Below, piece by piece: positions 32,919-59,400 of a stretch of 64,000 nt of DNA. A program made the position numbers and the translations under genes. The DNA lies in the NCBI RefSeq assembly GCF_004010195.1, contig NC_057753.1, forward strand, positions 12,232,842 to 12,296,841, written 5' to 3'. Position 1 is the first letter of the stretch; each line of letters opens with the position of its first letter. The stretch comes from Chiloscyllium plagiosum (taxonomy: Eukaryota). The notes below the pieces were generated by a model. The model did no database searches and was not told where the DNA came from. It saw nothing but the letters and a program-made list of their open reading frames with translations.

Positions 32919-32957
32919 CACAGTGTCACAAAGAGAGGGTGAGGCTTTACTAAAACT
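32919..32957 (+). other. 23-RSS
   Basis: CACAGTG + 23 nt + ACTAAAACT. Confidence 0.9.
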
Positions 32958-33965: not shown

Positions 33966-33989
33966 GATCAGTCATTACGCAATCTAAAT

Positions 33990-34258
33990 ATAGCATCCTG
34001 CTGTGTGGATGCATGCCATTCGGCCCATCGAGCCTCTGATGAACATAATATCCAGACCCACTCTACCCTGCATCTCCTATGTCTAATTTACCTAATCTGC
34101 CCAACGTTTGACTGTGGCCAGAAACCATAACACCCACAGGAAACCTATTCAGACTCAGGGAGAATGTGCAAACCCCATACTGACAGCTACCTGAGGCTGA
34201 AATCGAACTTTAGTGCTATGAGACAGCAGTGGTTACCCTTAAACCACTGTGCCATCAT
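33990..34258 (-). mobile_element. Degraded SINE
   Basis: HE1-like body (gggagaatgtgcaaacc). Confidence 0.65.
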
Positions 34259-35626: not shown

Positions 35627-36413
35627 ATGTCACCTGGAGCTCTTTGTTTACTCCTCACAACTACAGGTCTTCTCACTGGTACGTTGAAAACTTGTCTACT
35701 TATGTTTGCCAGCTCTTTCCTGGGACTCACGTTTACTCGAGCAATTTGGGTGATACAGAAGCAACAATACATTCTCCCAAATAAATCCATCTAGATCTAA
35801 ACTTGCCCCAACAATGAGCAGATTTCGGGAGAAATTAATGGCAGTGGAATAGTTAGACTGGAAATTCAGGCAGGACTGAGGCCATTGAGATGATTCGACA
35901 GAACGGAGTGTTTTATATTCACCAACATATTTCAGTTTTCCTTTCACATTGTGGGAGATGAAATGGGGAATGATCTCCTCATATGAAATTGATCCCTGTC
36001 CAAATTCCCTGATTTGTTTTCTCGGGTTGTTGATGAAGGTAAACGGGCTGATTATATGAGATAAGAATGTTGAAGTGCCTCATTAAATTTCTATCATTCA
36101 TGGCTCTTACAGGACTTTGTCGTGGCGATTCTGTCTCACAAATTCCGTCTGTAATCACAATAAACGAGGGTGATGATGTCCTGTTGTTCTGTAACTACTC
36201 TACAATAAACAGCAATCCTGCTCTGTTCTGGTACCGTCAACCTTCCAACGGGTCCATGAATTTTCTGCTGCAGAAAAACCAATATAGCCAGAAAACGAGT
36301 TTTCTACGAGACAAGCTCTCCTGGGATTTTGACCATGTGAACCGCACTATGCAGCTGAAAGTTTGGAAAACAGAACTAACAGACTCTGCAGTGTATTACT
36401 GCGCACTGAGTCC
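35627..36413 (+). CDS. TCR alpha/delta-type V gene segment; leader exon 35627-35678, V exon 36113-36413
   Basis: Leader MSPGALCLLLTTTGLLT/G with GT donor; acceptor cttacag. V reads GLCRGDSVSQIPSVITINEGDDVLLFCNYS...LFWYRQ...TDSAVYYCALSP with an open frame. Confidence 0.92.
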
Positions 36414-36452
36414 CACAGAGACTCAGAACTGGGCTGACCGTGTACAAAAACT
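36414..36452 (+). other. 23-RSS
   Basis: CACAGAG + 23 nt + ACAAAAACT. Confidence 0.9.
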
Positions 36453-38530
36453 CTCAGAGCGTCGAGGCAAACAGTAAGATCAGGAGTGGATCTAATGTGG
36501 TTCCCGAATTCAAGGTGATAGCTGATACTTATCATTCGGACACAACACTTTAATTGGCTTAAATCTATTATTGAAAGGAATGCCGTCAATTTCGAGAACA
36601 GAAAACAACTAATTTATTTTGCATCCTTCATGGTGTTCCAAAATGTTTTGTTGTTACAGGAATGACGTGTGATGAAATATCCGGAAAACGTTTTGATCCA
36701 GCAAATTCTTCTAGCAAAACAGGGAATTGCAGTATCCTGTTTGAGATACAATGACCTGTCACAGGATTCTAATAATAAGACACTGGAACAACCTGCACAA
36801 CGTTGTTGCAAACTGCCATTGCACCTTTATGATAACAGCTCCAAAATGACACGTTCTCGATTCATAGGTCCAGAATAACGCAGACCTGTCGGTGTTAGGT
36901 GTTGAAACAAACTGTACTGTGCAGCATACAGATGCAACACATGAAAGATTAAAGTCGTGTAAATTGCCAACACATCGAGATATGCAAACAAAAAAGTGTT
37001 TTGTCAAAGTCCACTTCATGTACAGAACTTCCAAACATTATATCAGAACAATCGTTAATTGGTATTTCATATTATTGTCTGCACCATAACAATAAAATAA
37101 TGTGCTGTGCATGCTGAAGATCTGAAACTAAACTCAACTTGCTGGCGAAACTCAGCAGGTCTGGCAGCATCTGTTGGGAGAAAGCAGAGTTAAAATTTTG
37201 AGTCCGGTGACTCTTCATCAGAAAACTGCGTGTCCCAGTTGACTGTGATAGGAACGTAAGAATTAAGAGAAGGAATAGGTGCTTCGACGCTTTGAGTCTG
37301 CTCCGCCATATAATAAGATCATTGCTGATTTGTTTTGTGGACTCAGCTCCACTTACCCGTGCTCTCACCGATAAAAAAACATGGTATATTAAAGGAACGT
37401 GTTCATTTCACCTGTTGCATTGCATTTTCATTTTGCACGAATGTTGAAACTTCTATAAATCCTAGCCCTATTGCAGCATGAATAATATGCAAGAAACTTG
37501 GTGGACATGTTCACTTCCTAAGAATGTATGACTCACATTTAAAAAAAAATAAATTATTAGTGTGATTTAACACATATAAATAACAATGTAGATGTCCATA
37601 ATAGTTGGAATTGAGGAGCAATTGTTCGTCCTCATGATAATATTGTTTTCATTGCAGAATAAATAGCAGAGACATTAAATTTCTCTGATTGAAAATGGAC
37701 ACTTAATTTTTCCGAATTCATCACCAGATTGTGTCCTTAGTCCATTAAGAATATTCACGGAGGGAAAGGAGAGGAATAACAATCAGGACCTGGCAGGTGT
37801 GTTAATTGTCTGTAGTACAAGCAAAGCATCGTTTCTGTTTGCTTTTTAGAATACTGATCAAAACGCAATGTTGGGAAATCATGAAAATAACCTTGATTTT
37901 CTTGTGGTTAAAGGAACCAGCGTTACATTTGACTTTAGGTCCAGAATATATGTCTGCATGTCAAGGTTTGGTGTGCAGTGGCTGGGACGGGGTGGAGGCG
38001 CCGAGCTCTCTGGAGCTGCAAAAAGTAAATCTGAGCTTTAGCAGGAGAGGCATGGATTGTATGATGCAGTGAGAACATGAAAACTGTCGAGTACATTTTT
38101 GAGGATGTAATGAGCTGTTCATCGGGTCTATGTCAAAGTAAAAGGCAACGTGAGTGATTCAAATAAATAGATGCAATAGTCCTGAGACACGAGTGATGGA
38201 GAAGAAGGAAGGAAGGGCAGAATGGCGACTGAGAGGGAAGGAGGGAAGCAGCAATTTAGATGAATATCAAATGACTTAGCCGAGACCACTAGAAGTATAG
38301 GGCAGTCATCAGAGGCATAGAATACAGTTTCGTCTCACATCCATAAAAACACTTCTTCGGCTGCTTTTTATTTTCCATTTGTATTAATGACAGGCAATAT
38401 AAAGGTTGGAAAAGGTGACTGGTCATATCTCCGGTAGTGAAGCACGAAACGCACAAACATTATTTAGTTTTTAGTAGGAGAGAATATTTTACACACTGAG
38501 TCACTCTGATCGATGGAACACATGAAATAA

Positions 38531-39976
38531 TTATTTGCACACAGCGAGAGATGTGAAGGGAGACAACATCACCTTCTTCAGTTCATCTCGGAATTTGTTC
38601 TGGGATATTGCATAAATGAAGACGTTGTTGCAGGAACTTAATATTTGCAGCATGTTCGTCGTTTCTTGGAGAATAAACTGTGGGTCAGTGAAATCTAAGC
38701 CACTGAAATATGCCTCACCTGTAACCCGCACATAGAGGAAGCGCCCGACATAGGTGACCCATAGAAGGAGGAAACTGAGCGAGATAGTGAAGAGCAGTAT
38801 GATGGACCTCTTGCGGTTGGCCATTTCTGAGTCTCCGTGGCTCGCCAAGCCCCGAAGCCTCCTTCGGGCACTGCTGGCCACCAAGATGTATCTAACAGTC
38901 ATGGCATTGAGCAGTAGAATAAGAAGGAACGGGAGAATAGGCGTCAAGATGTGATTCAGCCAGTCATAGGATTTCCATGCAGGTGAGTTATAGTACGTCT
39001 CTCTGAAGTCACAGAACCAGGAAATCCCGTCCACAATGTACAAGGGCTGGTAGACAAAGTAGGAAGGCAGGTTCTTGATACAGCTTAGGACACAAACCAC
39101 TCCAATGAACAGTGATGCAGTTTTTTCAGTGCAGTATCTGGTCTTCATACTCTGGCAGCATATGGCCACGAAACGGTCGATGGTGAATGCCACGGTCAGC
39201 CAGACTGAGCCATCTCGGCTGGTATAGATCATCACAGTGCTGACTGCGCAGGCAGTGGTCGTGGACAGTGTGCTGTGTCGGAAGTAAATGCCACCGATCC
39301 GATTCAGGATGCACCCAGTGATGATCACAAGAAAATCACTCACCGCTATCCCCACCAAGTAATAGGTGGTGCACCCAGAGAGTCCACACCGTCCTCGCAA
39401 TAGTATGACGATCGCCAGCAGGTTGGCTGGGGGAAGTTGCAAAGTATTATTGAACGGACCTGAGTAATCACTAGACATACTTTTAATCTTTAAAATAATG
39501 ACCTACCTGCAATGATTTTCTTCGGGATTATCATGTAATCTGTGCATAAGAATATCGAACGCAACGATAGCGCATTATTCCATACACCAGTAATTTCCAG
39601 CATTGCAACTGAATAGAATTTTGTGCAGTTATTCTGATTAATATTCAGGCAATGCTACATATTACAATTCAAAACTCAATGATGTAATAATCAATTGTTC
39701 CATAATTGCTCAATATTACATTTTGGATAGAATGTTGCTGTGCACTGCAGAGGGTGCAATCGAGGAAAGCTCAATGTTTGACACATGTATAGGGACCTGC
39801 GCTCAATTCCTTCAGTAGTGAAGATCAGAAGAAAAGACATTCCTGAAATTTAATATAAAAGATTTTCTTGCAATTAAAAAACGAATGTTTGGAATCTGTA
39901 ACTTACCAGGGACACCAATAGCAGCAAGAGCTGGATAATAAATGGCATAGAGAGGGCCACTCGCTGGGCCATGCAT
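38531..39976 (-). CDS. Class A GPCR, GPR139/GPR142-like; exon 1 39976-39907, exon 2 39426-38531, 321 aa
   Basis: Exon 1 MHGPASGPLYAIYYPALAAIGVP + GTAAGT donor; acceptor cttcccccag; in-frame join to ANLLAIVILLRG. Seven hydrophobic segments, SVWLTVAFTIDRFVAIC (DRY variant) and NNVFIY (NPxxY variant). The ORF-track N-terminus MSSDYSG... is intronic. Confidence 0.88.
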
Positions 39977-40048
39977 CACTTGTTATAAACTAATGGAATC
40001 ACAAAACTTCTCACTTGAGCTCCGTGACACTAACAAAAAGGTCTCTAA

Positions 40049-40054
40049 TTTATA
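40049..40054 (-). promoter_or_regulatory. Candidate TATA box of the GPCR gene
   Basis: TATAAA on the minus strand about 75 bp upstream of the exon-1 ATG. Confidence 0.35.
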
Positions 40055-41145
40055 ATACTTCAGAATCTCGAGAGTGTTAATTAAGTTTCAACATGTACCT
40101 TCGTTTCAGTCTGGCGAACAAACCTAATTACTCACTATTTAATGCCTTCTGTGTAACATTGGAATGTTGCACAATTGCATATACGTAAACTGAGAATAGC
40201 AACCTGCAAATTGAAAGCCCCCTTCCAAGTGTTTTAATTTCTCCATCAAATGGATTCCCGATTTCAAAACATGAGCTTATGTCTTTTGCCTAATTTGAAG
40301 GAACTCTCAGCCCTTCTCTGCGATTTTTCCAATTGTTTCGTCTCTTTAGTTGTGAAATTAGTTAAAGATTTGCATCCTACGGTTTTGCTGTCTTAACATT
40401 CTTCTATATTTAAAGCTCAACAATTTGAAATAACGATTTACCAATGATGGATGACATCTGAGAAGCATGGTATCTGATACCAGCGCATGAAAACCCTCTA
40501 GCAAATGAGAACAGAAAAATTCCTCGACCAAATGGAGTCTATTCCAGAGTCTTGAATGATGTGGGGAGAGACAGTGATTGCACTGATGGTTATCCTTGGA
40601 AATTCGAGAAATTCCAGAATGGTTCCTGAGGTTTAGAAAGAAAGGGCAAACAACCCAAGTATTTAAGAACAGTGGGATAAGAAAACAGGAACCAAAGACA
40701 TGTTGAATGTTGGTTATAAGGAAAAAGCCACGTCATATAATGAAGGAGACGATAAGTAGTCATTTTGAAATAATGATATGATTGAGATTTCTCAATATGA
40801 AGTTATAAAAGGGAATTAATGTTTGGCAAACCCATTGGAATTCGTTTTGTGGATGCTAATTTTGGCACTAATAAGGGACAATCAGTGTGTGCAATGTATT
40901 TTCGGACATATAAAAGTTTTTGATAACATGCCAGAGAGGAAATCGGTAAATAGATGAGATCTTACGAGATTGATGTTAAGGTGCTGTGATGAAGTAATGA
41001 GGAGAAATCAAACAGTAGAAAGGAATGCGTTATCTTAAGAATGGCCGACTGTTAATAGTTGTATGTCTTAACAATTAGTGACGCAGAGCGTGACAATCAA
41101 ATAATGATTGTGTGAATCATAGTTTTTGGAAACGCATTAATTGGT

Positions 41146-41440
41146 GGGAGGCACGGTGTCACAGTGGTTTGCACTGCTGCCTCACAGCGCCAGAGACCCG
41201 GGTTCAATTTCCGCCTCAGGCGACTGACTGTGTGGAGTTTGCACGTTCTCCTCCGGGTGCTCCGGTTTCCTCCCACAGTCACAAAAGATGTGCAGGTCAG
41301 GTGAATTGGCCATGCTAAATTGCCTGTAATGTTAGGTAAGGGGTAAATGTAGGGGTATGGGTGGGTTGCGCTTCGGCGGGTCGGTGTGGACTTGTTGGGC
41401 CGAAGGGCCTGTTTCCACACTGTAATGTAATCTAATCTAA
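41146..41440 (+). mobile_element. HE1-type SINE with small internal deletion
   Basis: Same family as the 29688 copy; (taatc)n tail. Confidence 0.9.
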
Positions 41441-41519
41441 ATTAATATCATCAAACTAAGTGGTAGCTTAATTCATGTAAGCCGCAGGTAGGCTTTTCAG
41501 TCGAGTCCAGTCATAATGT

Positions 41520-43575
41520 CAAAAAAATCGCACAACAATAGCAATCCAACAAGTTTATCCGGAAGGACTAGCTTTTGGTGAGCTGCTCCTTCGTCAGGTA
41601 GCTAGTGTGGCAGGATCATAGAACACAGCATTTATAATAAAAGATCAAAGTGTCAAATGACTGATGCGATGGATTGAACAAAATCAGATCGCTGTTAAGT
41701 CTTTAATCACTTACAATGAGGATGCAGGTTTCGAATATTGATATGTATATCCCAGAACTGCTTTCACGTCACAGTCCCGATATAAATTAAGGTTTTATTA
41801 GAAAAAAGTGACACCTCAGCTTAGACATTAAATGTGTGTGGTTAGTGTCTGTCTGTATCCCAACCTTAAGTCCGACTATTTTGATTTCCAAAGTAGGAAG
41901 TTTCAAATACCACATGAACTGATTGCCTACAGATTGTGTGTTTTTGAACAAAATAGAATAAACTTGCAAAGACAAATCTGCAAATATAATTTCAACCCAT
42001 CGACTTACATGTGCGTGTGCATGGGTGTGAGGGAGAGAGAGACAGAAAAGATGCGTGTGTGGGAGAGGGAGAAAGTGTGTGTGTCTGTGTGTGTGTATGC
42101 ATATGCGATTGCGTGTGCGCTCATGATGCAATGTGTGCGTGTTGGTGACAGAGTATATGCCTGTGAGAAGATGCGCACATGTGTTTGAGTGTGAATGTGT
42201 ATGTGAGTGTAATTGAGAGAACGTGTGCGTGAGGGAGGATTTGTGTGATTGTTCGAGTGCGATCCTGTGTCCGAGTGTATGTATATGCTGATTTGCTTGT
42301 GTGTCTGTATCAGGGTGTACAACATAGGAGAGTACCCTGTGGTGTGACATGAACCACGATCCCTTTTGAGGATGTCCTCATTAATACTGAAATTGGCTAT
42401 CAGCCTCTTCTCGAAAACTCTGCATTTTTCCGTGTCACAAACTCCTCCAGAAGGCATGGTCACCTGAAGATCCGTGGCCGATCCTCCTTGACCCCTGAAG
42501 TGTTCCACGCCTGGAAAGGTGCTCCCCATTTGGAAATAGTTGTGTGGTTCCAGTCACCCATTCTCTTTGCGTCCGCGTGGTCTCACCAATATATGATGCC
42601 ACAGGGATCCCGGCTTGCAACATTTGAGGCAGACAATTTTGACTGAGTCGCCTGAATATCTGCCACGCACCAGGTGGGTGGTGTCCCCACTTGTGATGAT
42701 AGTATCCATTGTGACATTCTGACACGTCTTGCAGTGGTTGTCATCACAGGTTTGTATAAACAAACCATTGATTGCAACAATTTGCCCATCCTTCAGGATG
42801 ACATTGAACACAACACCAAAGCATACCACTGCAAGACGTGTCAGAGCGTTGACATGGATAATACAATTAAACATTGTGCCACCACCCATCACGTATGCGG
42901 CAGTTACTCATGTGATTCGGGCAACATTGCCGCTCTCATACGCTGCAGGCTAGGTTGCCCTCATGATAGTATAAAGGCGAGGCCACGCGGATGCTAAGAC
43001 AACCAATAAATGAACACTGTGCAGCAATCGCCAAACAGGGATGCTCCCTCTCAGTCGGAGAATACTTCACCCGTGAAGTATATTCTGCTTTGGGTCTTCG
43101 GGTGACCATCCTCCAAGACAGGCTTTGGATGCGTAACAACACAGAATAGTCCAGCAGAAGCTGATCACTGAATTCAGTATCCTGAACCGGGATGTTGGGT
43201 TCATGTCGCACTACAAGGGACGCCACTACACTGTACGCCCTTATACGCACTCTCGCACACTCACACAGACCCTCTCTTACGAACATGTTCTCTCTCAGGC
43301 ACATGCTGTCTCTCAGACACACACAAACACATGCATCTACACATGCACATTCAAACGTGCATCACCTTACAGGCAAACACTCAATCAAACTCGGCCCACA
43401 CACTATCAAGCACGCACGCAGACACTCTCACAGGTACTCACACACTCTTCCCTTCGCTCTCATACACATGCACGAACACACACTTGTAAGTATATGGTGT
43501 GAATTTGCGTTTGCAGATCTGTAGTTGAAGACACATTCTATTTTGTTCGAAAAGTACAGAATATGCAGGCAGTCA
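41520..43575. mobile_element. Penelope-like element (GIY-YIG endonuclease 3' region) in inverted-repeat arrangement
   Basis: YIGETTRTQRE on minus; YHCKTCQ...HVCGSYSCDSGNIAALIRCRLGCP on plus. gacacgtcttgcagtggt (42721) is inverted at 42825; CA/TG-rich tracts mirror each other; a hammerhead-like motif lies at 41571-41597. Confidence 0.8.
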
Positions 43576-44307
43576 GCCCAAATCCAGACTACCAAGGCAG
43601 TCCTCTCTTCTAACCTGAATGTAGAGGAATCGTCTGACATAAGAGCTCCACAGGAATACAAAGCAGTGAGACATTGGGAACAGAAGAACAATGGAACAAT
43701 TGCGCTTGGTCATCTTGTGGTCTTCACTATGCCGAGAGCTTCGGAACCTTTTGTCTGCCCTATTGACCTCTGTGATGACGCTAACGGTGAGGGCGTTGAG
43801 CAATAGAATGATAACGAACGGGTGTTAAGATATGGACATGGTAGCGGTAGATCTGCCAAGCAAACGACGTGTAGAGGATTGTCTTGATGACATAGAGAGA
43901 AGGCATCCCTTCCAGTAGAAGCAAGGGATGAGAGACAAAGTAAAATGGGGCGTTCTTGATGCAGAACAAGGAGCAGATCCCTCTCATGAGGTGCAAAGCA
44001 GTTTTCTCGGTGCAGTTTTTGCTGCTCAGGCTCTGGCAGGAGATGACCACAAAACAACGAATCGTGAAGGTTACTGCCAGCCAGATTGATCCATTTCGCC
44101 TGATGTAAACCACCACTGCGCTAAACACACTCACTATTGTAGTAGACAGGATAGTGTATCTGTAGTAAATGCGGCCGATCCTATTCAGAATGCATCCAGT
44201 GATAATAACAAGGATATCAGCCATAACTATCGCCATTAGATCGTAGGTAATGCCACGCGAGAGTCTGCACTGACCTCGGGATAACATTATGATTGCCATC
44301 AAGTTGG
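43575..44307 (-). pseudogene. GPR139/142-like GPCR pseudogene, 3'-truncated by a Penelope-like element
   Basis: NLMAIIMLSRGQCRLSRGIT...ILNRIGRIYY...SIWLAVTFTIRCFVVISCQS aligns with the intact gene. A frameshift precedes LNALTVSVI...KRNCSIVLLF; the splice acceptor reads CAT instead of CAG; the DRF motif is lost. Confidence 0.85.
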
Positions 44308-44519
44308 ATGGAAGAGGTCAAAAGAGCGAGATGATACTGCTCTAATTTTAAATGACAGCTATTGTCTCATCCAGACTGTTATTGATATCATCTTAAAACA
44401 TCCTTAGCCACTTTCTGGCAATGACTCTTTTAAAATACATAGAGTCACTCTTGGATAAGTCATTTGTAAATCCAATTTCTGCTCTCTGCTCATATCCATT
44501 TGTCCTTCCAAACATTAAA

Positions 44520-44820
44520 GAAGTATAGAATCCCTACTGTGTGGGAAGAGGCTGATAGGCGCATTGAGTATTTAACGAACCTCCAAAGAGCATCCGATCC
44601 ACACTCACCATGTCCCGGTAGGCCCATATCTATCACAGTTAACTCACCTAACATGCATATCCCCTGCTTAACATGATGCCATTTGGCATGGTCAACCCAT
44701 CTAATGTGTATATCTTTGGACTGTGGGAGAAATTCTGACCACGCAGCAAATACCTATCCAGACGCAGGCAAATGTGTAAACTCCACACAGACAAGGGTGG
44801 ATTCGAATTTGTGTTCCAGG
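44520..44820 (-). mobile_element. Degraded SINE
   Basis: tttggactgtgggagaaat...aaactccacacagac, HE1-like. Confidence 0.6.
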
Positions 44821-45249
44821 TAAGTGTACAGTATCCAGTTCATCCCTTGTCCCAGGCACATTACCCTACATTGGCTTCCCGCCTAGCAATGCCTCACTTT
44901 GATATATCTCACTTTCATATTTGTGAGTAGAACAATGTTTCAAGTTGCATCAATTTGAAATTCTAAAACCATCTACTATCACAACGTACCTCCAATTCTG
45001 TCCTCCTGTGCATCCCTGAAGCAGGTCATAGCTGTCACTTCAACCTATAGCTGTTGAGGATCTAATCCCAGGCAGTCCCTCCCTCGCCGACTCTTTCCAC
45101 TCTTCCGAAATAAGGATGCTTCTCATAACCAATCTCTTTGATAAAAAAGAACTTTCCACTCTGTATCCTTCCTTAAAACTTTCGATAGTATTTCATGATA
45201 TTCAGTATTCTGTGGAACATGCCAATCAGACATATTTCAATCAGACATA

Positions 45250-45970: not shown

Positions 45971-47049
45971 CAGCTGCTGCGTCCCTTTAGGTTTGTCCTT
46001 TATGTAAATGATTTAGTGGAGAATATAAAAGATATGGTTAGTAAGTTTGTGGATGTCACCAGAGGGGATGGTTGATACTGAAGAAGGTTATATAAGATTA
46101 TACAGACGTCTCCAGTATTCTGCTGTGCTGATTTGAAGTATCTGTGTTATTGTGGGATCCAAAAATCCGAACGAAGGGAAATGAGAGGAAATTACAACAG
46201 AAAATATCGACTTGCAAAAGTTAAAGATGGTCAGAAGTGAAGACAATTGGATAGGTGGGCGGAGGTGAAGGACCATAATAATTTCAAGCCAGAAACATTG
46301 AAGGAGAAAAGAGAAAGCAGGGAAATGCAGTAATAATACTTTTGCATGACAGAATCGTGAGAAAAGATCAGATTAAATTACAACTGAATGAAACATGAAG
46401 GTCGTATAGCGGCCTTTCTTTGAACTTTAATAGTTATTTAATCTAACCATCTCAAGAATGCTTCCCTGAAAATTCATCATTTGGTATTGCCCCATCCATA
46501 AATCGTTCATTTCCTGGCAGTGCAAATTTACTAGAGATCCCACCAGAAGGCGTTATAATCACACTCACTGATGCAGCCTCTGTCTTTGTCCGCTGGTAGG
46601 CACTTGGAGTCACGTTCAACACTTGACTTTTCATTTAGTTATGCATCATCTGTAAACTTGTCAGTAGTACATTCACTTCAGTCATTGGTTGGATGGTGTG
46701 TTGACATGTATCGCTGCTTTCTCACCATTCCCATTCAGAAAAGGGAGATTTTACAACAGTGCATTTTTTCTTTGAAATATCCATTGTCCTTGCATGGGCG
46801 CTGAAGGCAATGGCGATATTCATCTCTAATATTGCATGACAATTTGTTGGTGAGCGAACATTTTGGCACACTGCATCTGATATAACTGCATGATGTACAT
46901 TTGCAATGATGCAAGGTTAAGTTAAAGCAAAACAGTTTTTGATACTGTTGAATTCCTCGAATCTAGCAGCAGGCCATTCAGCCTAATTGAATGTAGATTG
47001 TAATCTATATTCCGGAAAACATCCATCCTATTTCTTTAAACACAATTTT

Positions 47050-47225
47050 CCCACGGTCATCTATCGTAGCCTGCACATCACTGAACTGTGGGCGAATATC
47101 AGAACACCCACTGCATCGCAAGAATGTGCAAACTTGACACAGATAGTCGCAGGAGGGTGAAATCTGACCTGCATCTCGAGCGCAGGGAAGCAGCCTTGCG
47201 AACCAGTGAGTCCCTATGCCTCCCA
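47050..47225 (-). mobile_element. Degraded SINE
   Basis: gaatgtgcaaacttgacacagatagtcgc, HE1-like. Confidence 0.55.
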
Positions 47226-47923
47226 ATGGCACTTGCCAGTAATTGCAGTCAAGAAAAATTCGATTCTACCTTCACATTTATTGAAATTTTACTTGTTCAT
47301 TTATTTATTTCTTTATTTGTTTTTCTGACTATTTTCTTAGACCCATAGACCCTTTGCTTCAGTTCCAGCGAAACTCTCGCAGTCAGCGGGGTACTCTGTT
47401 AAATGGGAAACTCCAGTTCTGATACTCGAAAAACATGAAGTACTTTCCATCTCTGGTTTTGCCTACAGAAATAATAAAATGTAAAGAACAACATATCGTT
47501 TAAACTCTGCCCATTATCATTTTGTCACTTGATCAAATTCACTTTGGTATTTAAACCAAAAGCAGAGAATTGCACTAGCTGGAAATGTGAGACAAAAACG
47601 AAAATAGCCGGAGAAACTCAGCAGGTTTGACAATATCTGTGAAGAAAAAAATACAAGTCAAAAGTTTCAAGTCCACTGACCCATTTTCAGAATTTTGTTC
47701 CTTTCTTACAACTGTCATGATATGAAGTGGGGTTTGTAGGATATTGAAAGTGTTTGGGTCAAGAATAAACGAACTTGAAGTCCATTGGCTGTCATCTGGT
47801 ATCTTTGCCAACAATGAACCTATGAGCAACGATCCGGAAATTACTCAATCATTTCCCAACTCTTGACGAAAACAATTTTAGCTCCGACCAGTTTTGCTCA
47901 TTTTCATAGTGATCTCTGAAAAA

Positions 47924-48801
47924 ATGTCGCCCAGAGCTCTGTGTTTACTTCTCACAGCTGCAGCTCTTCTAACTGGTAGGTGCACAACTTGTGGAACTTT
48001 ATGCTTCAACTCTTTGTCGGGAATTACATGTACTCTAACAATTCTAGCATCACAGAAGTAGCAACACATTGTCCCGCGATTGAAATAATCTGGATCTAAA
48101 CTTGTATCAACACTGAGCACAGTTTAGGAGAAATTAGCGAATGCGCTTGCATGAACTAACATGGAAGAGTGAAGCTGGGAATTCAGACAGGACTGAGGTT
48201 GAGACAAAGGCCGGACTTTTAAACTCAACGACTTTTTTTAGTTTTACCGTTTATGTCGGGAGTTAAAATGGGAATTCACCTCTTTAAAAGGTGTGACCCA
48301 TGCCTTCAAGGATGTTTTATTACATTTGTCGAAGCCCTTGCCTGTCGCAATGGCTGCGTTGTATGAAATGGATTCTTGTTCATCTTCCTTGTCTCTTATT
48401 CCTCTGTTTAGTGTTCAAGGTTAATGGGCTAATTCTACGCTATAAGTGTAACGAAGTAACTTTTAAAATTTATTCTCACTCCTATTTCTGACAGGAGTTT
48501 GTCGTGCAGATTCTGTGTCACAATCACCGGCCGTAATCACAGTGAATGAGGCGGATGATGTCCTTTTATTCTGTAATTACACAGCTACATCAAATAGCAA
48601 TCCTTATCTGTTCTGGTACCGTCAGCATTCCAACGGCTCCATGGAGTATCTGCTAAACAGAAACCAATATATCAGGAACACCGAGAATCTTCCAGAAGAT
48701 CGGTTTTCCTCAGAGTTAGATCATGTGAATCGCACTATCCAGCTGAAAGTGTTGACAGCAGAACTGACAGACTTCGCGGTGTATTTCTGCGCACTGAGCC
48801 C
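47924..48801 (+). CDS. TCR alpha/delta-type V gene segment, paralogue of the 35627 V; leader exon 47924-47975, V exon 48495-48801
   Basis: Leader MSPRALCLLLTAAALLT/G with GTAGGT donor; acceptor ctgacag. V reads GVCRADSVSQSPAVITVNEADDVLLFCNYT...LFWYRQ...TDFAVYFCALSP with an open frame. Confidence 0.92.
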
Positions 48802-48840
48802 CACAGAGATTCAGAACTGGGTTGTGTCCTTACAAAAACT
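48802..48840 (+). other. 23-RSS
   Basis: CACAGAG + 23 nt + ACAAAAACT. Confidence 0.9.
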
Positions 48841-49744
48841 GTCAGAGAGCAACTAAACCTGACGGTTTATAAAGGGAGCAGTGAGATCAGGAACGGGTCT
48901 GAAGAGGCTGGCGAATTCACGGTGATATCTCATGCATCTCATTTGAACATAAAACTTTAACCGTTTATTGGAACGAACCAAAGCTGTCAGTTCAATGAAT
49001 GAGAACGAAATAATTTATTTTGTGTCTTTTGAAATTTCCCACGGTGTTTCACTGTTTCAGTGATGATGTGGTGAAGAAAATGCATGAACCAGTTTAGGTT
49101 AAACAAAACTCTCCACCGACAAAGGGAATTGCAGCATTCCGTTTGAGAGACAACAACTTGCCACGAGATTGTAATAATCAATCACTCTGGTAACTTGAAC
49201 AATGTCAAACGCGTTGCAAGTTATTGACTACTGCCCTTGTACCTCAATATTTGGAGCCTCTGAACGGTGAATCATAGAGTTGACTGGTTCAGGATAATGC
49301 AGTCTTCGTTAAACTACCAATAAGAAATCGGGATCGAACTCTCATCTGAACAGCGGTAAACAGTGAAAGACGTTTTGTAGCGATTGATTAATGAGTCAGA
49401 GCCACCGATGAAAGTCTCAGTCACATGACATTTCTTCTGGTGGCAGGGCGTAAATGAACATTTTCCATCGTCTGTGGAAAAGTCTGATCTGGACATTTAA
49501 GTTGTGTAAAGACTAAAGAGTTCCTCTTCTCCCACTGGTGACACCTGAGAAAAAAGGACAGATTCCTAGTTCGAAAGTGAGTCATAAAAGAGATATTCCT
49601 GACTCTGGTGTGATCGAATCAAGTGTAATCTGCTTCTACAGAATAGGGGATGCACATAGAACTTGGCATCCCTCAGGTGTTACTAGATTCTGAACAGTCA
49701 GAATAACTCTTTCGTTATAGAAGACGTGTACCCTGTTGATGAGT

Positions 49745-50910
49745 GTCATGAGCAGTCATGGGAGTGTCTGATTAGCAGCTACACGACAGTGTGAAAAATT
49801 GCACAGGTATGTCCTGTACACAACAAAGCAGGATAAATCCAACCTGGGCAATTACCATCCAAACAGTCGCCTCTCCATCATTAGTAAAGTGATGGAAGGG
49901 GTCATCACCAATGCTATCTAACAGCACTTGCTCAGCAACCGCCTTCTCAGTAACCAACAATTTGGGTTTCACCAGGGTCAGTCAGCTCCGGATCTCATTA
50001 CAGCCTTGGTTCAAACATGGATGAAAGAGCTAAATTCCAGAGATGAGGGGAGAGTGACAGCCCGTGACATCAAGGCCGCAATTCACCGAGTATAGCATCA
50101 AGGAGCCCTAGCAAAACTGGAATCAATTGATATCAGCAGGCAAAGATGCCGCTGGTTACAGTCGCACCTGGCACAAAGGAAGATAGTTGTGGTTGTGGAG
50201 GGTCAGAAATCTCAGCTCCAGGACATCTCTGCGGCAGTCCCTCAGGGTAATGCACTAGACCTAACAAACTTTAGCTGGTTCATTGACAGATCGACGATCT
50301 GTCATAAGTTCAGAAGTGGGGATGGTCGCTGATGATCGCATGGTGTTCAGAATCATTTGCAACTCTTCAGGCACTGAAGCAGTTCGTGCTCAAATGCAAC
50401 ACAATCTACACAATATCTATACTTGGGCCGACAAATAGCAAGTAACATTCGCGCCACACAAGTAGCGGACAATGATAATCAACAATAAGAGACACTCTAA
50501 CCACCGCCCCTTGACATTCAACGGTATTACCATCATAGAGTCCCCCACTGGCAACATCCTTGGGTTACCATTGACCAGAAACTCAGTTGGACTCACCGCA
50601 TGAACACAATGGCAGCAAGAGCAGGTCAGAGACTAGGGATACTGCGACGAGTAACTCACTTTCTGACATCCCAAAGTCTATCCAATATCTACAAGGCACA
50701 AGTCATGAGCATGATGGAACAGTCCACTCTTGTCTGGACGCGTGCGGCTGGATCAACACTCAAGAAGCTTGACACCATCCAGGACAAAGCAACCCACTTG
50801 ATTGATACTACATATACAAATATTGAATCCCTCCACCACTGATGCTCAGTTGCAGCAGTATGTACCATTTACAAGATGCACTGCAGAACTGTACCCAGCA
50901 TCCTAAGAAA
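49745..50910 (+). mobile_element. Non-LTR retrotransposon RT fragment (CR1/L2 group, second family)
   Basis: NYHPNSRLSIISKVMEGVI, QFGFHQGQSAPDLIT, DIKAAIHRV, VPQG, ADD-type motif; contains stops. Confidence 0.8.
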
Positions 50911-51377
50911 TCAAGCCAGAGTTGGAGGATTTGAGCTGTAGTGAGAGGCTGAACAGGCTGGAGCTGTTTTCTTGAAGCTTTGGATGCTGAGGGGTTACGT
51001 TTTAGAAGTTCATAAAATCATGAAGATCATGGATAGGGCGATCAGACCAGATTTCTTCTCCGGGAGGTAGGAGCCCAGTCATAGAGGGCATAGGTTTAAG
51101 GTGAGAGGAGAAAGACTTCAAAGTGATCTAAGAGGCAACCTTTTCACGAGGGGTGTTGCACACATATGGAATGAGCTTCGCAAGGAAGCGTTTGAGGCTG
51201 GTACAATTACAAAATTCAAAAGGAATCTGAATGAATATGAATAGGAAGGGTTTAGATGGATATGGGCAAAATTCCTTCAAATGGAGCTAGATTTGTTTGG
51301 GATATCCGGAAAGCATGGACGAATTGAACCAAAACGTCTCTTTCAGTTCTGTACATCTCTGTGACTGTATGACTCTA
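50911..51377 (+). mobile_element. CR1 LINE 3' end with tail
   Basis: Same family as 16121/18195; ends tgtacatctctgtgactgtatgactct. Confidence 0.8.
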
Positions 51378-52576
51378 AATTGTGCATTTTCTCTGAACGC
51401 CATTATACCTGGCTGCCACTAGAAGGCAGCAGTGGCATGAAGATTATTCACATGCATGTGTAATCAGTTTACAATGACTGTGTGGGGACATAGAGAGTTA
51501 GCTTTCTATGTCAACAAACATCGAGCAGAATTTCATCAGTAACCATTAGAAAGCAATAAAGTATAGGATGTATGGGCAAGCTATTGGACATTCAGTCCAT
51601 TTGGAACTCTGCTTTTCACTGGCATTATGGATGATTTAATGATCTTAATATCCATTTACTGCCTTACTACTATATCCCTTGGCTCTCTTATTAATTAAAC
51701 ATCTGTCTAACTCGCTAAAATATTCAAGGAATTGTTCATTTAACATTTGGCCAACTCCAACTACTCTGTATCCATATGTTTGGATGAGGGAATCTGTTGG
51801 ATATTTCCAAATTTGCCTTCATTGCACGAGTGTTTGAGTAACAGACCAACGAGTTCACTGAAGTGACAAAATATATTTTTCAAAACACACCAATGGGAGT
51901 ATCTTGGTATTTCCAGTCACAAGGCTGTAACTGCATATTATGAGATGTTCAGGCCAAATAGCTCCAGATGGAATGATGGGATCCATGAACTATAAGACAT
52001 AATCTGTGCAGCTGGATTGCAAGCCACTGACGTTACCACGATGTCACCGACTGTCAGTCTGGTGAATGTACACCCCAATACTATTAAGAAGGGACTGCTA
52101 GGATTTTCAGTTGGCAGATATACAATAATCGTTCTGAAGTTCAAACTCGGAATGGTATGTATGCTTTGACCTGGATTTTGAAGCTTCTGTTGCTCAGGTT
52201 GCTTTGATGTCTTTTTCCTGAATTGGACAGTTTGTGAGTTTCGAAGATGACGCAGAAGGGGACGTTGAAGGAATTTGTTGACACAATAAATCTAAAAACA
52301 TCGGATTAACCTGTAAGCCTGCAGTCCTGATAAATAACTAAAAACTTTACAAGAGCGCTGTTACTTTTAAAGTAAGTACAATGTGAATATTCCTTATGAT
52401 AACTTCACCTCAAGAAACCTCACTACACGAAAACTGGCGAGTAAATAGTTGATCATTGTGTTGAGGTCCCAGAGGAACCATTGTTAGTATGCATCGACTA
52501 CATGGAACTCTCATAATGCTGTTTTAAATGGTGCCCTATATCTGAGACGAGAACAATATCGCTGGTTTGGTTTCTC

Positions 52577-52990
52577 NNNNNNNNNNNNNNNNNNNNNNNN
52601 NNNNNNNNNNNNNNNNNNNNNNNNNNNNNNNNNNNNNNNNNNNNNNNNNNNNNNNNNNNNNNNNNNNNNNNNNNNNNNNNNNNNNNNNNNNNNNNNNNNN
52701 NNNNNNNNNNNNNNNNNNNNNNNNNNNNNNNNNNNNNNNNNNNNNNNNNNNNNNNNNNNNNNNNNNNNNNNNNNNNNNNNNNNNNNNNNNNNNNNNNNNN
52801 NNNNNNNNNNNNNNNNNNNNNNNNNNNNNNNNNNNNNNNNNNNNNNNNNNNNNNNNNNNNNNNNNNNNNNNNNNNNNNNNNNNNNNNNNNNNNNNNNNNN
52901 NNNNNNNNNNNNNNNNNNNNNNNNNNNNNNNNNNNNNNNNNNNNNNNNNNNNNNNNNNNNNNNNNNNNNNNNNNNNNNNNNNNNNNNNNN
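52577..52990. other. Assembly gap (N run)
   Basis: N run. Confidence 1.
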
Positions 52991-53532
52991 CGCCCCCCCA
53001 CCTTCCATATTCAACTGATTAAGTGCATACTAAAAGGTCCCTACCTTGTTAAACAAGCAGATGAGATTTTGTTTGATTCTTGAAGTAGAACTCCATCTTC
53101 CATTGTAATTAAAAAAGAATCCCAATCCTCTTTCTTGCCTCTTAACCTCTCTTTAAGTTTTTGAGTCAAGCATGATTGGCTCAACTCCTTACTGGTATCA
53201 TTCCTCTTCATTGTGGTACGTTTGCTGTCAGTAATGCATCATTTTCTTAAATAACTGCCATTGTTATTGACAACCCGTTCCGGTAAATACTGTACAGTAG
53301 GGAAATGGTCTGCTTGGGTCCTTCTTGGAGGATCAAATGTAGTTGCTGGGTCAAAGGGCCTGTTTCCTCATTGTAGGGATTATGTGATTTGGCTGTAATG
53401 AATTTCAGCGATCGACAAAGAGACAAACATTTCCAGCTCAGTTCTGATAATATAGGAGTCTCAGGATAAAATGATCTGATTAAAGATAGACATTGCCACC
53501 AACGTAACTGATCACATAAAGATGTTGCAGTT

Positions 53533-53870
53533 GGGCGGCATTGTGACTCGGTCGTTAAAAGAACCAAGGGCCTGGGCTCGACTCTATCCTCTGACGACTG
53601 TCTTTGTGAAGTTTGACCAATTTCTCCGTGTCTCCCTAGGTTTCCTTCAAATGTACTTGTCTTCTTCCACAGACCAAACATATGCCTGTTGGGTATATTG
53701 GCCATGCTACATTGCCCGTAGAGCCTAGGGTTGTGCAGTCTTGGTGGATAGCATTAGCCATTGAAAATACAGGATTAGGGACAGATGGATTGGGTTTGGC
53801 AGAAATGCTCTTCGGAGGATTGTTATGGCCAAAAAGAGCCACATGGTCTGCTTCTCGCTGAAGGGCGTTT
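53533..53870 (+). mobile_element. Degraded SINE
   Basis: gggcggcattgtgactcgg head, ggccatgctacattgccc body. Confidence 0.6.
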
Positions 53871-55539
53871 ATGATTGGTCAAATGCAACTGTTTTCGGTG
53901 GGTCTCCATATCTGACCATTGTTGTAACTGACTTCAGCTAGAAAACTAACAAAATGGCTGGGATCCCTCTTTGATGGTGGAACCATATTCAATTGTATGT
54001 CTCACGTGCAAGAAAAAAAAAAGTGTCCTATGCTGCAAATGCATCTCAGAAATGGTTAATGTCGTGCAGCTCGTCGAACTGTTGAAGTATGCAAAAATAA
54101 CATAGATTTTCTTTCCAAAGCAATATTCGAATTGCAGAATCTTTCAATGATATTATCAGAAGAAGCGTTTATTACATTTCCTATCACTGATTGTACCAAA
54201 ACAATAAAACAAGTAACTGGAGATCTGAACTAAAGCACTTCTTGCTGGCGAAATTCGACAGCTGCAATCCTGGGAGAAAACAATGTTGTCGTTTCCATTT
54301 CAGTGGCTGTCCATGACAAATTAAAGGTACAAGTTCAAGTCAACCTTTGCATTCCATTTTCATACACTTTGGATTTTGGAGTTTCTGTGGCTGGAAGCTC
54401 AATTTCAGCACGAACAATAAGCAACACGTTTATCAGAGATATTGAGTTCTCAAAATGACATGAAATGCTTCCAAAAAAACAGTATGTATTTTTTTTACTT
54501 ATTTAGCATTTTTCAAAACAAACAAGTTATAATTCAGGGGCCACAGTATTTACCATGGAGGAGGGCGAACTATCCTCATGATAACATAGTTTTCACTGAA
54601 GAATGAATCACAGATATATTACATTTCAGTGACGGAAAGGCGACGCGCCTAATTGATCCAAATCCACCACGAGGTGGGGCATTTAGCCCTTATGAATATT
54701 CACAGCCGAAGACGAGTGAACTGACAACCAGTAACTGGCAAATGTGACTTAATAATGTAAAGTGGAAGTACAGCCACCTTTCTGATTACATTGTACAACA
54801 TTAAACGAAACAGAAACTAAAAGAATCACGAAAATAATCTTGACCTTTTTGTGGAAGGGAAAAGGTAAAGCACGATGTCAGGTGTGTTTAGGGTTTGGTG
54901 GTTCGTGCGAAATGGGCTGGAACTGCAGAGACTATGAAACACTTAAACTAAATCTGGACTCAACCACTAATGGCACGGATTCTACGATCCAGAGAAATCA
55001 CAAAAACTATTGAGATCATCGTTGAGGACATAATGGCGTGTTCATAAGGACCATAACAAAGTGAAGGACAACGTGAGAGATTCAAATAAATCAATACAAT
55101 AAGCCTGAGACGTAAATGAGAGCGAATCAGATAATGAGTCATCGAAGAATGGAGACTGCGAAGAAAGGACAGGAAGTGGTGAATATCAAATGAAATGAGC
55201 CGGATCATTGGAAATCTGCATTAATGATCACAGGCACGGGCCTTATTTTAGCATATCTATCTTCGGCACACAATTTGTGTTTTTTGCATAATCCGTTCAT
55301 TTTAGCAAACACGGTTATCAAGGCTGTGGAATGCAATGTTCGTATCTCCAGTAGAGAAGCAAGAACACGTTATTCAATTGTAAGAGAGCGATCGAGATAG
55401 AGAGAGACAGACAGGGAGAGACAGAGGGAGAGAGGTGGGTGCGTCGAGGGGGTGGGGGGGCGGGGGGGAGTGCCACGCACTGATCCTCTCTGATGGAAGA
55501 AAACAACATAACAAGATTATTTGTAACTAGCCAGACATG

Positions 55540-56410
55540 TGATGGAAGACACCAGCACGTTCTTGAGTTCACCTCGAAACTTCTGGGATATTACTCAAAT
55601 GAAGATTTTGTTGCTGGATCTGAGTCTCTGCAGCTTGTTGTTCGATTGTTGAAGCAGACATTGTGGGTCTGTGAAATCCAAGCCACTAAAGTAGGACCCA
55701 CCCCTAACCGGACATAGAAGAACATTGATGTTCCAAAGAAGATGAAGCTGAGCGAAATAGTGAATGACAGTAAAATGGACCTGATGTGGGTGGCCATCTC
55801 TGGGTCTCCATGGTTTCCCTCAACATAGTGTCTCATTCAGGCACACCTGGCCACCAAGAGGTATCTGACTGTCAAGGGATTGAGCAGTGGAATGTGGAGG
55901 ATCGAGAGAATAGGCTCAAGATGTGATTCAGCCAGTCATAGATCCTCCATGAAGGTTATTTGTTCCATGTGTCGATGAAGTCACAGAATGAGGTCATTCT
56001 GTCTACTTTGTACAAGAGTCAGTCTTCAAAGTAGGAAGGCAGGTTCTGGATGCAGGTCAGGAAACAAACCACTCCGATGAACAGCGAGACAGATTTAATG
56101 ATGCAATATCTTCTCTTCGCACTCTGGCAGCATATCACCACGAAATGGTCGATGGTGAATAGCACAGTCAGCCAGACAGGGCAATTTCGGCTGGCATAGA
56201 TGATCACAGTGTTGTGTGCATAGGCGGAGGTCGTGGACCGAGCACTGTGCCAGAAGTCAATACCACAGATCCAATTCAGGATGCACCTAATCACAATAAA
56301 TCACTCACTGCTATCCCCGTAAAATAAATTGTGGTGCACCAAGAGAGTCCACACCATCTGCCTAATGGTATGATAACCGTAATAGTATCGCCATCCCCAA
56401 ACAAGGTGGT
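55540..56410 (-). pseudogene. GPR139/142-like GPCR pseudogene, close paralogue of the 38531 gene
   Basis: Fragments CILNWICGIDFWHS...VWLTVLFTIDHFVVICCQS...NLPSYF* and HGDPEMATHIRSILLSFTISLSF, with stops and frameshifts. Intron and 3' flanks are homologous to those of the intact gene. Confidence 0.87.
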
Positions 56411-59400
56411 TGTGGCAAATTTAAGCATATTATTGAACTGTCTTGATTAATCACTATATGTCATTCTATTGTTTAAAATAAAGACTGATCTGCAATAACT
56501 TTCTTCGTAATAATCATGAAATCTGTGCATGGAAATGTCGAACGCAATGATAACAGATTATTCCATCTTACACCAAAAACATTGAATTGCAGTTTCCAGC
56601 ATTGAAATAGAAATTAATTTTGAATAGTTTATCTGATTAATATTCAGGCAATGCAATCCAATCCAATCTCATGTCAATAAACTGATAAACCACTGTTCTC
56701 TACTTGTTCAAAATAGCAGGTAGAATATAATCTTGCTGCTTTTTGCAAATGGATGCAATAAATTACAACTCAACATTTTACATTCATATATAGCAAGTAC
56801 ACTACCCTGTTCTTTGCCAACATTCTTGTCTCAGGGTTGCTGCAATGCTCCAGTGAAACTCAGCGCAAGTGGTGAGAACAGCACTTCGTTTTCTGCTAGG
56901 GGAATTGGTAGCTCCCTTGACTCAATATCGAGTTCAATTGAAATTTCCTATGTCCAAGCCCCTTACCGCATACACCAGGCAGTATTATTATTTAGTCTAC
57001 GATTGCACACTACCTATTGTTTGTCAGTAACTGTCTCCATTAACAGGTATTAATCCTCCTATCCAGATCGTTAGCCATTCTTTTGTCTTTCCAACAGATC
57101 GCCCTCTCGGTTGGTTCTATGCCCATCTACTATTTAGTCATTAACCACTCCCCCCACCGTGTCTTCTGCATAAAAACCGACATTTTACTAGCTAGCATCA
57201 TTTCCGAGCAAGGGTCACCAGAACGGAAGTGTTAATTCTGATTTCTCTTCACAGAAGCTGCCACACTTAATAGCTTTTGCAACAATTCCTGTTTTTGGAT
57301 TGAGTAGAACAGCTGGGTGACAGAATAGCCAAGGCTCCGATTTTAAGAAAAACAACACGTTTGAACGAAAATGAAAAAAGTGGAGGGCTTTGTTATGCTT
57401 TGTTAACTCTGAGCTACCAGGAATGCAGTATGCTCAAAGGAAATTTTGAGTAACAAAACCTTCACTGCAAGTGATGTAAAAGGGCTGGCTGGGATATGAA
57501 GACATCCCTTTTCATCTTCGCAATGAATGATCTGATTTTGTTTCTTAGGATACTCTTATCTAGTTCTTTTGGGTATTTATCGTCCTGTTCTCAGAGCAGT
57601 AATTGTTGATCTGTCTGTTAATGAACAGAAACAGTTTCAACTGGGCAATTGTCTGTCACCACACATGAGATATGTCTTCCTTGTTAGATCTTCATCCTCA
57701 TTAGTTTATTCTTCCACGATCTTTTCCACAATTGAAGGAACATAAGAATGGTTGGTAATCTCATGTTCAAAACAACTAGCACATTAATATGCTTCATCTA
57801 AGACTTTCAGCGGCAACACATCTCCAGAACAATGATAATAGATTGCTCATCTGTTCTACACCAGTGGGTCATTGTGTTACTTCTTGTGGTATTCGTTGTC
57901 TTTCGGATGACTATCAGATCACATTATTCCACTGAAATGTAGACAACATGAGTCATTCCAGTTAACACTTCGGGAGAGATTTCATTCACATTTTAATCTA
58001 ATTGGGCCTGATGAAACAGATAAGATGGTTTAACTTTTTACGCAAATCACCTATCAGAAATTGTTTTCCCCCTCACCTTCCCCTCCCGCTATATATCAGA
58101 AGTGCTTGAGGACTCCACTGATGCTGTTGCACTGTAAGAGGTATGGAATTGAAGGAATTTCATGCTAATCCACCTCCTGAGGAATCTTCTGACATATTAC
58201 AGGATGTTCTGCACTAACATTGTTGTGTACAAGGTGTTGTTGTAAGACCTGTCTGATGGGGACTAGCTCCCTTTGAACGAGTTCAAGCTCAAGTGTCAAT
58301 AATGTCCTCATAACAGAAATGCTTATGTTGTCTGTGTTGGGCTTGAAGCAACTGTACAGTCATTTTAGATGTTAACATTGGCTTATGAATAACATTAGCA
58401 CACAATGAGCAAATGTCGTAAAAAGCAATGACAATTGAGGGGATTCCATGCTCGAGACTGAAAATACCAAAGTTTTACTTTGTGAAATGTAAATGAACAG
58501 TAAATTTCAGAGGTATATGAAAACGATAACATGACAGAACATACATAAATGTAGCAGGCATTAATTTATTAAAAAAATGAGTTTGCAAGTTAAATTAAGA
58601 ATTAAGACGATTTCTCCTGTATTTTTCTTACATGATCTTGTTGAGTGCTTTTTTTAAATTTCATTAATGATTTTGTGATTCTCATCCTGGGTGTTGTATT
58701 ATTGCCTGAGTTTATTGGTCTGGGAGCTCCCTCACGTGGGCATCAGTTGGAAGTCTCAAGGTAGGTGTTTGTATAGGGACTGAAGTATTTACAGCAGTGT
58801 GGGTTCCAAAGCACAGAAAGACACGGCGACGTCGGAAAGAAGAACTGGAGCGACTTTGAAAGGAAATACGTTGTTTTCTTTGAACAAAACAGGAGAGAAC
58901 CTGTTTTGAAAATATTGCGAGGTTTCTCTCTTCCCCCGAAACATATGATTTCACTAAATATCCCGCAGTGTACCAGGATGCTGAATGTATCAGAACACAG
59001 TTCGAACAGAAGATGTCGAGTAACTGCAGTTCAGCATTATGTTCTGTCCTTCCAAGACTATGAATTCGTGCGGATCCTGGAATGTTGCATCTTCACTATT
59101 AGTCCCTGCAACAAAACACAATCTATCAAACATCTGTCAGAAAATATAACTCATGTAGCAGGCATTGAACATTTAAACATAGACTCACCAAGCAGTACGG
59201 ACATAATCATTAGTAAGGAGCATATGGGGAACATGACACGCCTTCTAGATTTGTACAGTAATAATTGAATCTACAAGTATATTGAGAGTTCAAATCCGAT
59301 ATAGAACAGTGAATTCAGATCGGGGCATATTTCACTCATGGGGAAACACAGGGGGTTTTCTGAAGAAATAAGATTGATTGATTGCTCAGATCTGATGAAG

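Follow-up and report, generated by a model that had tools for sequence, protein, structure and literature searches.

In a 64,000-nucleotide stretch of Chiloscyllium plagiosum DNA (contig NC_057753.1, positions 12,232,842 to 12,296,841; hereafter the window), T-cell receptor (TCR) V genes are interleaved with members of a family of orphan G-protein-coupled receptors (GPCRs). A first-pass annotation had proposed the order V (+, 35627), GPCR (-, 38531), GPCR pseudogene (-, 43575), V (+, 47924), GPCR pseudogene (-, 55540). Both the order and the coordinates were recovered on re-derivation: the V genes start with ATG at 35627 and 47924, the intact receptor stops at 38531, one pseudogene is truncated near 43575 and the other ends near 55520. 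Each of the two intact V genes, both TCR alpha/delta-type, stands tail-to-tail with a GPR139-like GPCR. The features on which the argument turns are listed below (positions are those of the window; RSS, recombination signal sequence; 23-RSS, RSS with a 23-bp spacer).

32657..32957, + strand: V32, a V gene of another family, immediately upstream of unit A (23-RSS 32919-32957)
35627..36452, + strand: V36, an intact TCR alpha/delta-type V gene (leader 35627-35678, V exon 36113-36413, 23-RSS 36414-36452)
38531..39976, - strand: GPCR38, an intact two-exon class A orphan GPCR of 321 aa (exon 1 39976-39907, exon 2 39426-38531)
43580..44311, - strand: psi43, a GPCR pseudogene of another clade, its 3′ end cut by a repeat element
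47924..48840, + strand: V48, an intact paralogue of V36 (leader 47924-47975, V exon 48495-48801, 23-RSS 48802-48840)
55517..56395, - strand: psi55, copied from exon 2 of GPCR38; it has 4 stops and 8 indels and lacks exon 1
32977..39792: unit A of a duplicated block, delimited by blastn against unit B (it takes in an upstream region, V36, the intergenic stretch, exon 2 of the GPCR and the greater part of its intron)
46121..56793: unit B (V48, psi55 and an intron remnant but no exon 1; 4.8 kb inserted between V48 and psi55 include a scaffold gap)

V36 and V48 have the attributes of TCR alpha/delta V segments: a leader exon, a phase-1 intron, a V-set domain (Pfam E 4e-13 for V36) and a 3′ RSS with a 23-bp spacer. 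In both, the leader-plus-V frame is open and GT/AG splice sites are present, and their heptamers and nonamers are identical. The ratio of non-synonymous to synonymous divergence (dN/dS) between the two genes is 0.34. A protein search with V36 returned three candidates only, all unplaced models from the brownbanded bamboo shark; in other species, ordinary V segments are not represented among protein records, which leaves no basis for cross-species trees of the V side. The open frame of V32 (32510-32957, +) extends upstream into a hydrophobic, leader-like stretch, with no obvious separate leader exon.

The intact receptor, GPCR38, is composed of a 70-nt first exon and a long second exon, with a poly(A) signal near 38372. 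It matches the 7tm_1 model (E 2e-21; 77 bits against a curated cut-off of 30.5) and carries the D and R of the DRY-type motif as well as both cysteines of transmembrane helix 3 and extracellular loop 2 (TM3-ECL2), as expected of a class A (rhodopsin) receptor; the olfactory-receptor type model, 7tm_4, stays below its cut-off. A stop-to-stop frame of 323 aa was discarded as intron read-through, splice reconstruction giving two exons and 321 aa. Exon 2 is 97% identical to an epaulette shark protein (P0001) of the same 321-aa size, whose N-terminus matches exon 1, and 90% identical to a whale shark protein. In DNA contigs of a relative, 2 of 298 bases differ from GPCR38 over the coding region, compared to 32 of 937 in two contigs of non-coding DNA (Fisher p 0.008; the three contigs are among the 8 longest pieces of that run and so form a selected sample). 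Taken together, the protein identities and these difference counts indicate that GPCR38 is under constraint. When the best 120 of the 949 matches to exon 2 were examined, nearly all were shark and ray models named ‘probable G-protein coupled receptor 139’, and by its sequence GPCR38 is a plain member of this RefSeq-labelled shark family, which comprises 103 clusters at 50% identity with E 1e-30 or better. A protein atlas search returned automatic names of the same family only. Several public models of the GPCR38 clade (P0125, P0124, P0126, P0002) have wrong N-termini resulting from intron read-through or repeat-derived exons, and some clade models bear misleading names (chemokine, melatonin or sex peptide receptor-like); the true exon 1 is found in the epaulette model.

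The receptors had been assigned to a GPR139/142-like family undergoing birth-and-death with the V array. A GPR139-like family in birth-and-death is indeed what we see, whereas orthology with GPR139 itself fails. Human GPR139 is the closest solved structure to GPCR38 (E 5e-10), with about 67 identities over 266 aligned residues (~25%), and its score of 42.6 bits is barely above those of LPA6 (40.3) and the PrRP receptor (40.0). Both genes have two coding exons, and the intron presumably lies at the same position. The two-exon structure of GPR139 is documented, as is the 70% identity between its zebrafish and human proteins (PMC7318219). Among the GPR139 agonist-site residues F3x33, H5x43, W6x48 and N7x38 (PMC5430874), GPCR38 keeps the last two, with F3x33 replaced by Y and H5x43 by N. 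GPCR38 was rejected as a GPR139 orthologue on these two grounds, the identity far below that of even the zebrafish protein and the half-kept agonist site. None of the listed 50%-identity cluster representatives of the shark family carries the three tested GPR139 motifs. GPCR38 resembles the vertebrate GPR139/GPR142 receptors in best structure match, exon number and the two kept residues, and differs in overall identity, in the two replaced residues and in belonging to a highly multicopy family.

Units A and B are homologous almost without a break, in collinear blastn segments of 63-79% identity that include the flanks. All five flank pairs listed in the first-pass annotation proved homologous, with identities of 69-80%; their local scores ran from 106 to 1023, while shuffled sequences reached at most 32-54 (200 shuffles per pair, but 30 for the long one), and self-comparison likewise found the flank homology to be collinear. 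Non-coding divergence between the units is 27-35% raw and 0.33-0.47 corrected, so the duplication is old. Unit B carries approximately 4.8 kb extra (49206-54015), consisting of repeat fragments and a 414-N gap at 52577-52990. Homology ends at 39792/56793, inside the GPCR intron and 115 bp before exon 1. At the other end, unit A starts 20 bp past the RSS of V32; a breakpoint made by the RAG recombinase was considered and is not supported, no RSS being present at the start of unit B. A short repeat of very high copy number (37139-37223, 35288-35330) occurs in both units and dominates depth in four mapped read runs.

The 414-N gap lies between V48 and psi55, and a second gap, of 500 N, is located at 11654; such gaps are what would be seen if the repeated layout were an assembly artefact or a chimeric scaffold. 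We consider this highly improbable. The units are about 30% diverged, so they are no collapsed or doubled haplotype, and the interval from V36 to GPCR38 is free of gaps. Collinearity picks up again across the 414-N gap (36803 to 36905 versus 49205 to 54016), which supports the scaffold join, and the relative's DNA contigs span 30 of 30 bins of 32400-40400.

The fate of the GPCR copy was followed through its missing first exon and its substitutions. A profile of exon 1, built from 51 of the 120 GPCR38 relatives, matches only two places in the whole window, 39958 (GPCR38 itself) and 9705 (an orphan exon, see below), and none that could belong to psi55; local alignment of the exon-1 region (39800-40300) to 40600-64000 gave scores of 38-39, not above the shuffle mean of 42. 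In a FastTree phylogeny of 126 rows, psi55 falls in the GPCR38 clade (support 1.0), roughly level with the whale shark protein. The dN/dS between GPCR38 and psi55 is 0.55, which is what neutral evolution along the whole of one branch would give. When 233 columns were polarized with an outgroup consensus of 14 proteins, 65 changes fell on psi55 and 3 on GPCR38 (20 ambiguous). Changed columns in psi55 amount to 28-36%, in addition to the 4 stops; a neutral simulation at 0.15-0.23 substitutions per site, about half the corrected flank divergence, yields 27-37% and 3.6-4.8 stops. The lopsided changes and the fit to the simulation thus indicate that psi55 has been non-functional, and has decayed neutrally, for essentially its entire life, while V48 stayed intact.

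The other well-preserved pseudogene has a different history. psi43 is sister to epaulette P0078 (support 0.997), with a synonymous divergence (dS) of 1.45 from GPCR38, and it matches GPCR38 only in the coding part (38670-39437 versus 43558-44318). No flank homology to unit A or B was found, nor any exon 1 by the profile over the whole window; an exon-1-like splice donor at 44807-44837 (+) was dropped, the profile giving it no support. Because it belongs to another clade, is this divergent, shares no flanks and is cut by an inverted-repeat element, psi43 is best described as an older paralogue, not a copy of the block. The proposal of a duplicated V plus GPCR module can therefore be retained in part: one segmental duplication took a V gene together with the adjoining GPCR exon. 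A repeating module is not supported, because only one of the two well-preserved pseudogenes lies in a duplicated unit, and that copy lacks exon 1 and has evolved neutrally.

The wider setting of these genes is given by a cassette near the start of the window.

4410..5704, - strand: NAR-TCR cassette, made up of a leader, an IgNAR-like V, RSS-like sites on the flanks of D positions and a J

This cassette shows a 51-89% match to the first domain of two-V NAR-TCR models. By its presence, with TCR V genes in both orientations as in Table S1 of PMC12227049, the window is assigned to that account's TCR alpha/delta-IgH antigen-receptor complex (AgRC). No conventional J or C gene was seen within the 64-kb window, and no supporting TCR-delta V was found in the 4.4 kb downstream of the cassette within it. 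Related NAR-TCR models carry a second V domain, which here is outside the window or lost.

A search with the NAR-TCR V gave 34 candidates, 17 of which are NAR-TCR V matches. These lie on contigs of exactly the same lengths as those that carry close GPCR relatives in bamboo, epaulette, zebra, basking and horn shark and in Mustelus, six species spanning four shark orders. On contigs matching a NAR-TCR V contig in length lie 31 of the 58 GPCR relatives listed for the six species, or 34 of 58 when a 6.18-Mb epaulette scaffold is counted; we do not claim that this scaffold is the TCR-alpha scaffold of Table S1, since accession offsets argue against it. Neighbourhoods were read for 30 chosen proteins, not a random sample, from RefSeq accession order, which is taken to follow position because Table S1 gene identifiers for the most part increase along the coordinates; no accessions exist for ordinary V segments. 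On a 2.52-Mb epaulette scaffold, NAR-TCR accessions (XP_060678041, 047, 050, 054, 059, 061) alternate with GPCR accessions (042, 043/044, 049, 053, 062), and the GPCR38 orthologue XP_060677331 comes right after a NAR-TCR model (330), matching the gene order of the window. GPCR and NAR-TCR accessions are consecutive in bamboo shark (043538414/415) and basking shark (078391560/561), and are close in Mustelus (GPCR 644, NAR-TCR 650, GPCR 656 and 662) and zebra shark (706 and 713); in horn shark a GPCR accession falls between two NAR-TCR ones, but 46 and 241 numbers off. In white shark, GPCRs XP_041031385, 387, 402 and 519 follow UrIg2 (XP_041031358), which Table S1 puts on the antigen-receptor complex chromosome (PMC12227049). 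From these accession neighbourhoods, interleaving of the receptor family with V and NAR-TCR genes is likely to be general among sharks. The family does not need the TCR locus, since 17 epaulette matches fall on 10 contigs, several of them large chromosomes of up to 168 Mb. Near-identical basking shark GPCRs (P0010, P0021 and P0022 clusters) occur in accession pairs 868/869, 884/885, 902/903 and 909/910 on a 65-Mb contig, which hints at recent tandem blocks, each holding several intact receptors.

We put at about 70% the reading that the V genes here are interleaved with an orphan GPCR family whose members are passengers, that the GPCR copy was dead from birth and that no V-GPCR unit is under selection. 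What the sequence shows is the layout, where the block ends, the absent exon 1 and a one-sided decay that spared the V gene but not the GPCR copy. Since the block ends within the intron, the GPCR copy was probably non-functional from its origin, and the receptors are probably passengers. The underlying event would be a single tandem duplication of the V block, presumably by unequal crossing-over, the ‘homology unit’ route known from TRB loci; the GPCR copy without exon 1 would have been dead on arrival and the V copy retained. The region would be an old hub of this GPCR subfamily within the antigen-receptor complex of sharks, with two tandem families expanding and decaying next to each other. 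Least certain of all, the intact receptor may sense amino acids or small peptides in non-T cells, as one member of a chemoreceptor-like repertoire.

Several points weigh against this reading. If a complete duplication had soon been followed by the loss of exon 1, the pattern would look no different, so the breakpoint is unproven. Concentration of the subfamily on the antigen-receptor chromosome in four orders could reflect selection for linkage and not local duplication alone. Identical GPCR proteins with two or three accessions occur in epaulette and basking shark, where there seem to be recent duplicated blocks with intact GPCRs next to NAR-TCR genes. Finally, co-location in other species was judged from contigs of equal size and accession order, not from coordinates.

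The tail-to-tail layout, duplicated together with its flanks, and the interleaving with NAR-TCR genes suggested in six species can also be taken to mean that V and GPCR form a functional, co-selected cassette, with the TCR locus controlling GPCR expression in T cells and V(D)J joining, by deletion or inversion, producing clone-specific GPCR sets. This is improbable in view of what followed the duplication: the GPCR duplicate decayed neutrally and its V survived, so the partners were neither complete nor jointly constrained. Moreover, psi43 has no V partner block, and accession-order neighbours of one NAR-TCR subfamily (epaulette, bamboo shark) fall in four GPCR clades. As for congruence of V and GPCR trees, the window offers one congruent pair, psi43 is unpaired and the NAR-TCR accession neighbours are mixed. 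By the established geometry of V(D)J joining, any gene that lies between the V in use and a J-C of like orientation is lost from that allele. Loss of GPCR38 by V(D)J joining, as foreseen in the first-pass annotation, thus hinges on the position of J-C, and matters only if the receptor is expressed in T cells. In epaulette, 15 of the 25 V entries of Table S1 face away from the TCR-alpha C gene (PMC12227049) and therefore would join by inversion, which also speaks against the cassette.

Sequencing runs give some hints on expression. In run X9, of unrecorded type, a contig of depth 40 extends over 36113-36409, from the V36 splice acceptor to just before the RSS; junctions are not shown, and the pattern is a hint of spliced rearranged transcripts, which would give it. 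Runs X9 and X17 (both of unrecorded type, contigs only) have contigs over V36 and, at low depth, over GPCR exon 2, with none over the GPCR intron or exon 1; this is a weak hint that both genes are transcribed in some sample, and as such favours the cassette; intergenic DNA in X9 is covered at a similarly low depth. In the single-cell run X21 (~2% read), 326 reads were placed, none at 99% identity or above, and depth was zero over the GPCR exons and over both V exons, leaving the run without a positive control and uninformative on GPCR expression. A related and even less probable idea is a large, undescribed GPCR repertoire that sharks would keep inside the antigen-receptor complex because lymphocytes use it, in which opening of the TCR locus would switch on its neighbours and V(D)J deletion or inversion would leave each clone its own GPCR set; if true, sharks would have a second receptor system that varies somatically in step with the choice of TCR.

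The receptor family may also represent an unrecognised chemosensory repertoire of sharks, linked to TCR alpha/delta since early elasmobranchs as the functional counterpart of the mammalian TRA/D olfactory cluster, with linkage kept through a common silenced, duplication-prone chromatin. The breadth of the family (103 clusters) fits this, as do positions equivalent to the ligand pocket that vary across the family beside a nearly fixed DR motif, W6x48 and TM3-ECL2 cysteines, and the small number of canonical olfactory receptors in sharks (PMC11979771). On the other hand, the same source, as far as its available text goes, has no GPCR among the 50 top brain/olfactory genes of catshark, and family members lie on other chromosomes too. 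We hold it as tentative and rather unlikely; at the level of the duplication it is compatible with the passenger reading.

The window contains further V genes (32657, and pseudogenes at 59091 and 62575) and further GPCR remnants beyond those of the first-pass annotation, as well as the element that truncates psi43.

7987..8184, + strand: strongly decayed GPCR fragment, TM6-TM7 region, matched by 73 of 120 family queries (best E 2e-5)
9672..9741, + strand: orphan exon 1 of a further receptor family member, 70 nt with GT donor (profile E 1e-4)
41919..43576: inverted-repeat mobile-element remnant truncating psi43 (self-blast)
58801..59100, - strand: psiV59, a V pseudogene with stops, in opposite orientation (tblastn and RSS scan)
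62575..62914, + strand: psiV62, a frameshifted V pseudogene of the V36/V48 family

No exon 2 for the orphan exon was found before the gap at 11654, and it is possibly unassembled; the exon is followed by a 665-bp tandem duplication of 96% identity (9996-11364) and then by the 500-N gap. The element at 41919..43576, in which Pfam found no family in the three frames tested, is presumably Penelope-like. A 299-bp direct tandem repeat of 98.7% identity within a LINE fragment (2236-2831) may owe its second copy to the assembly.

The V-GPCR cassette itself thus amounts to an ordinary segmental duplication with a dead passenger, and within the window the cassette idea does not survive its main test. 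What is both new and useful is that V and NAR-TCR genes of the shark antigen-receptor complex are intermingled with an orphan GPCR family in an apparently conserved way: in at least four shark orders a diverse set of receptors seems to occupy the intervals between V genes of the TCR alpha/delta-IgH complex, the oldest of its kind known. The receptor genes can serve as anchors to order and date V and NAR-TCR duplications in poorly assembled loci. They also raise a question testable with existing tissue RNA, namely whether the shark receptors are sensory or lymphocyte genes. In the literature searched, mostly open-access, no prior description of a GPCR family linked to shark antigen-receptor genes was found. 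The accessible text of PMC7677710, PMC8692893, PMC8455134, PMC11979771 and PMC5931798 does not mention the family, although their supplements may list these genes; sharks have been described as poor in GPCRs (PMC8455134).

One of the known systems close to the window is the elasmobranch AgRC, which unites TCR alpha/delta, NARTCR, IgH, UrIg2 and PSMB5 (PMC12227049). As in the window, V genes and NARTCR cassettes are scattered there in both orientations, over megabases. The main text of that account contains no occurrence of ‘GPR’ or ‘G-protein’, so that the interspersed GPCRs go unnamed in it, and Table S1 lists Ig/TCR-type genes and PSMB5 only; its PDF supplement may list GPCRs. In mammals, olfactory-receptor genes are interspersed with TRAV1 at the 5′ end of TRA/D (PMC2275272), so that there, too, TCR alpha/delta V genes are found among a multigene family of class A GPCRs. 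However, only one or two TRAV lie among the mammalian receptors, whereas the mixing in sharks appears locus-wide, and the shark GPCRs are a two-exon family unrelated to olfactory receptors. The sharks would accordingly provide a second, independent case of a GPCR cluster sharing the TCR alpha/delta region. Trypsinogens in TRB are likewise a non-TCR passenger family in birth-and-death inside a TCR locus (PMC2685407, PMC2275272), and they lie between TRBV and TRBC, so the same deletion geometry applies to them (PMC2275272). With the interleaving apparently conserved in other sharks, the analogy to both passengers, already drawn in the first-pass annotation, is apt. TRBV genes were spread by tandem ‘homology unit’ blocks of 7-31 kb (PMC2685407, PMC2275272); these units are described there as carrying V genes, while the shark unit, of at least 6.8 kb, carries a passenger exon too.

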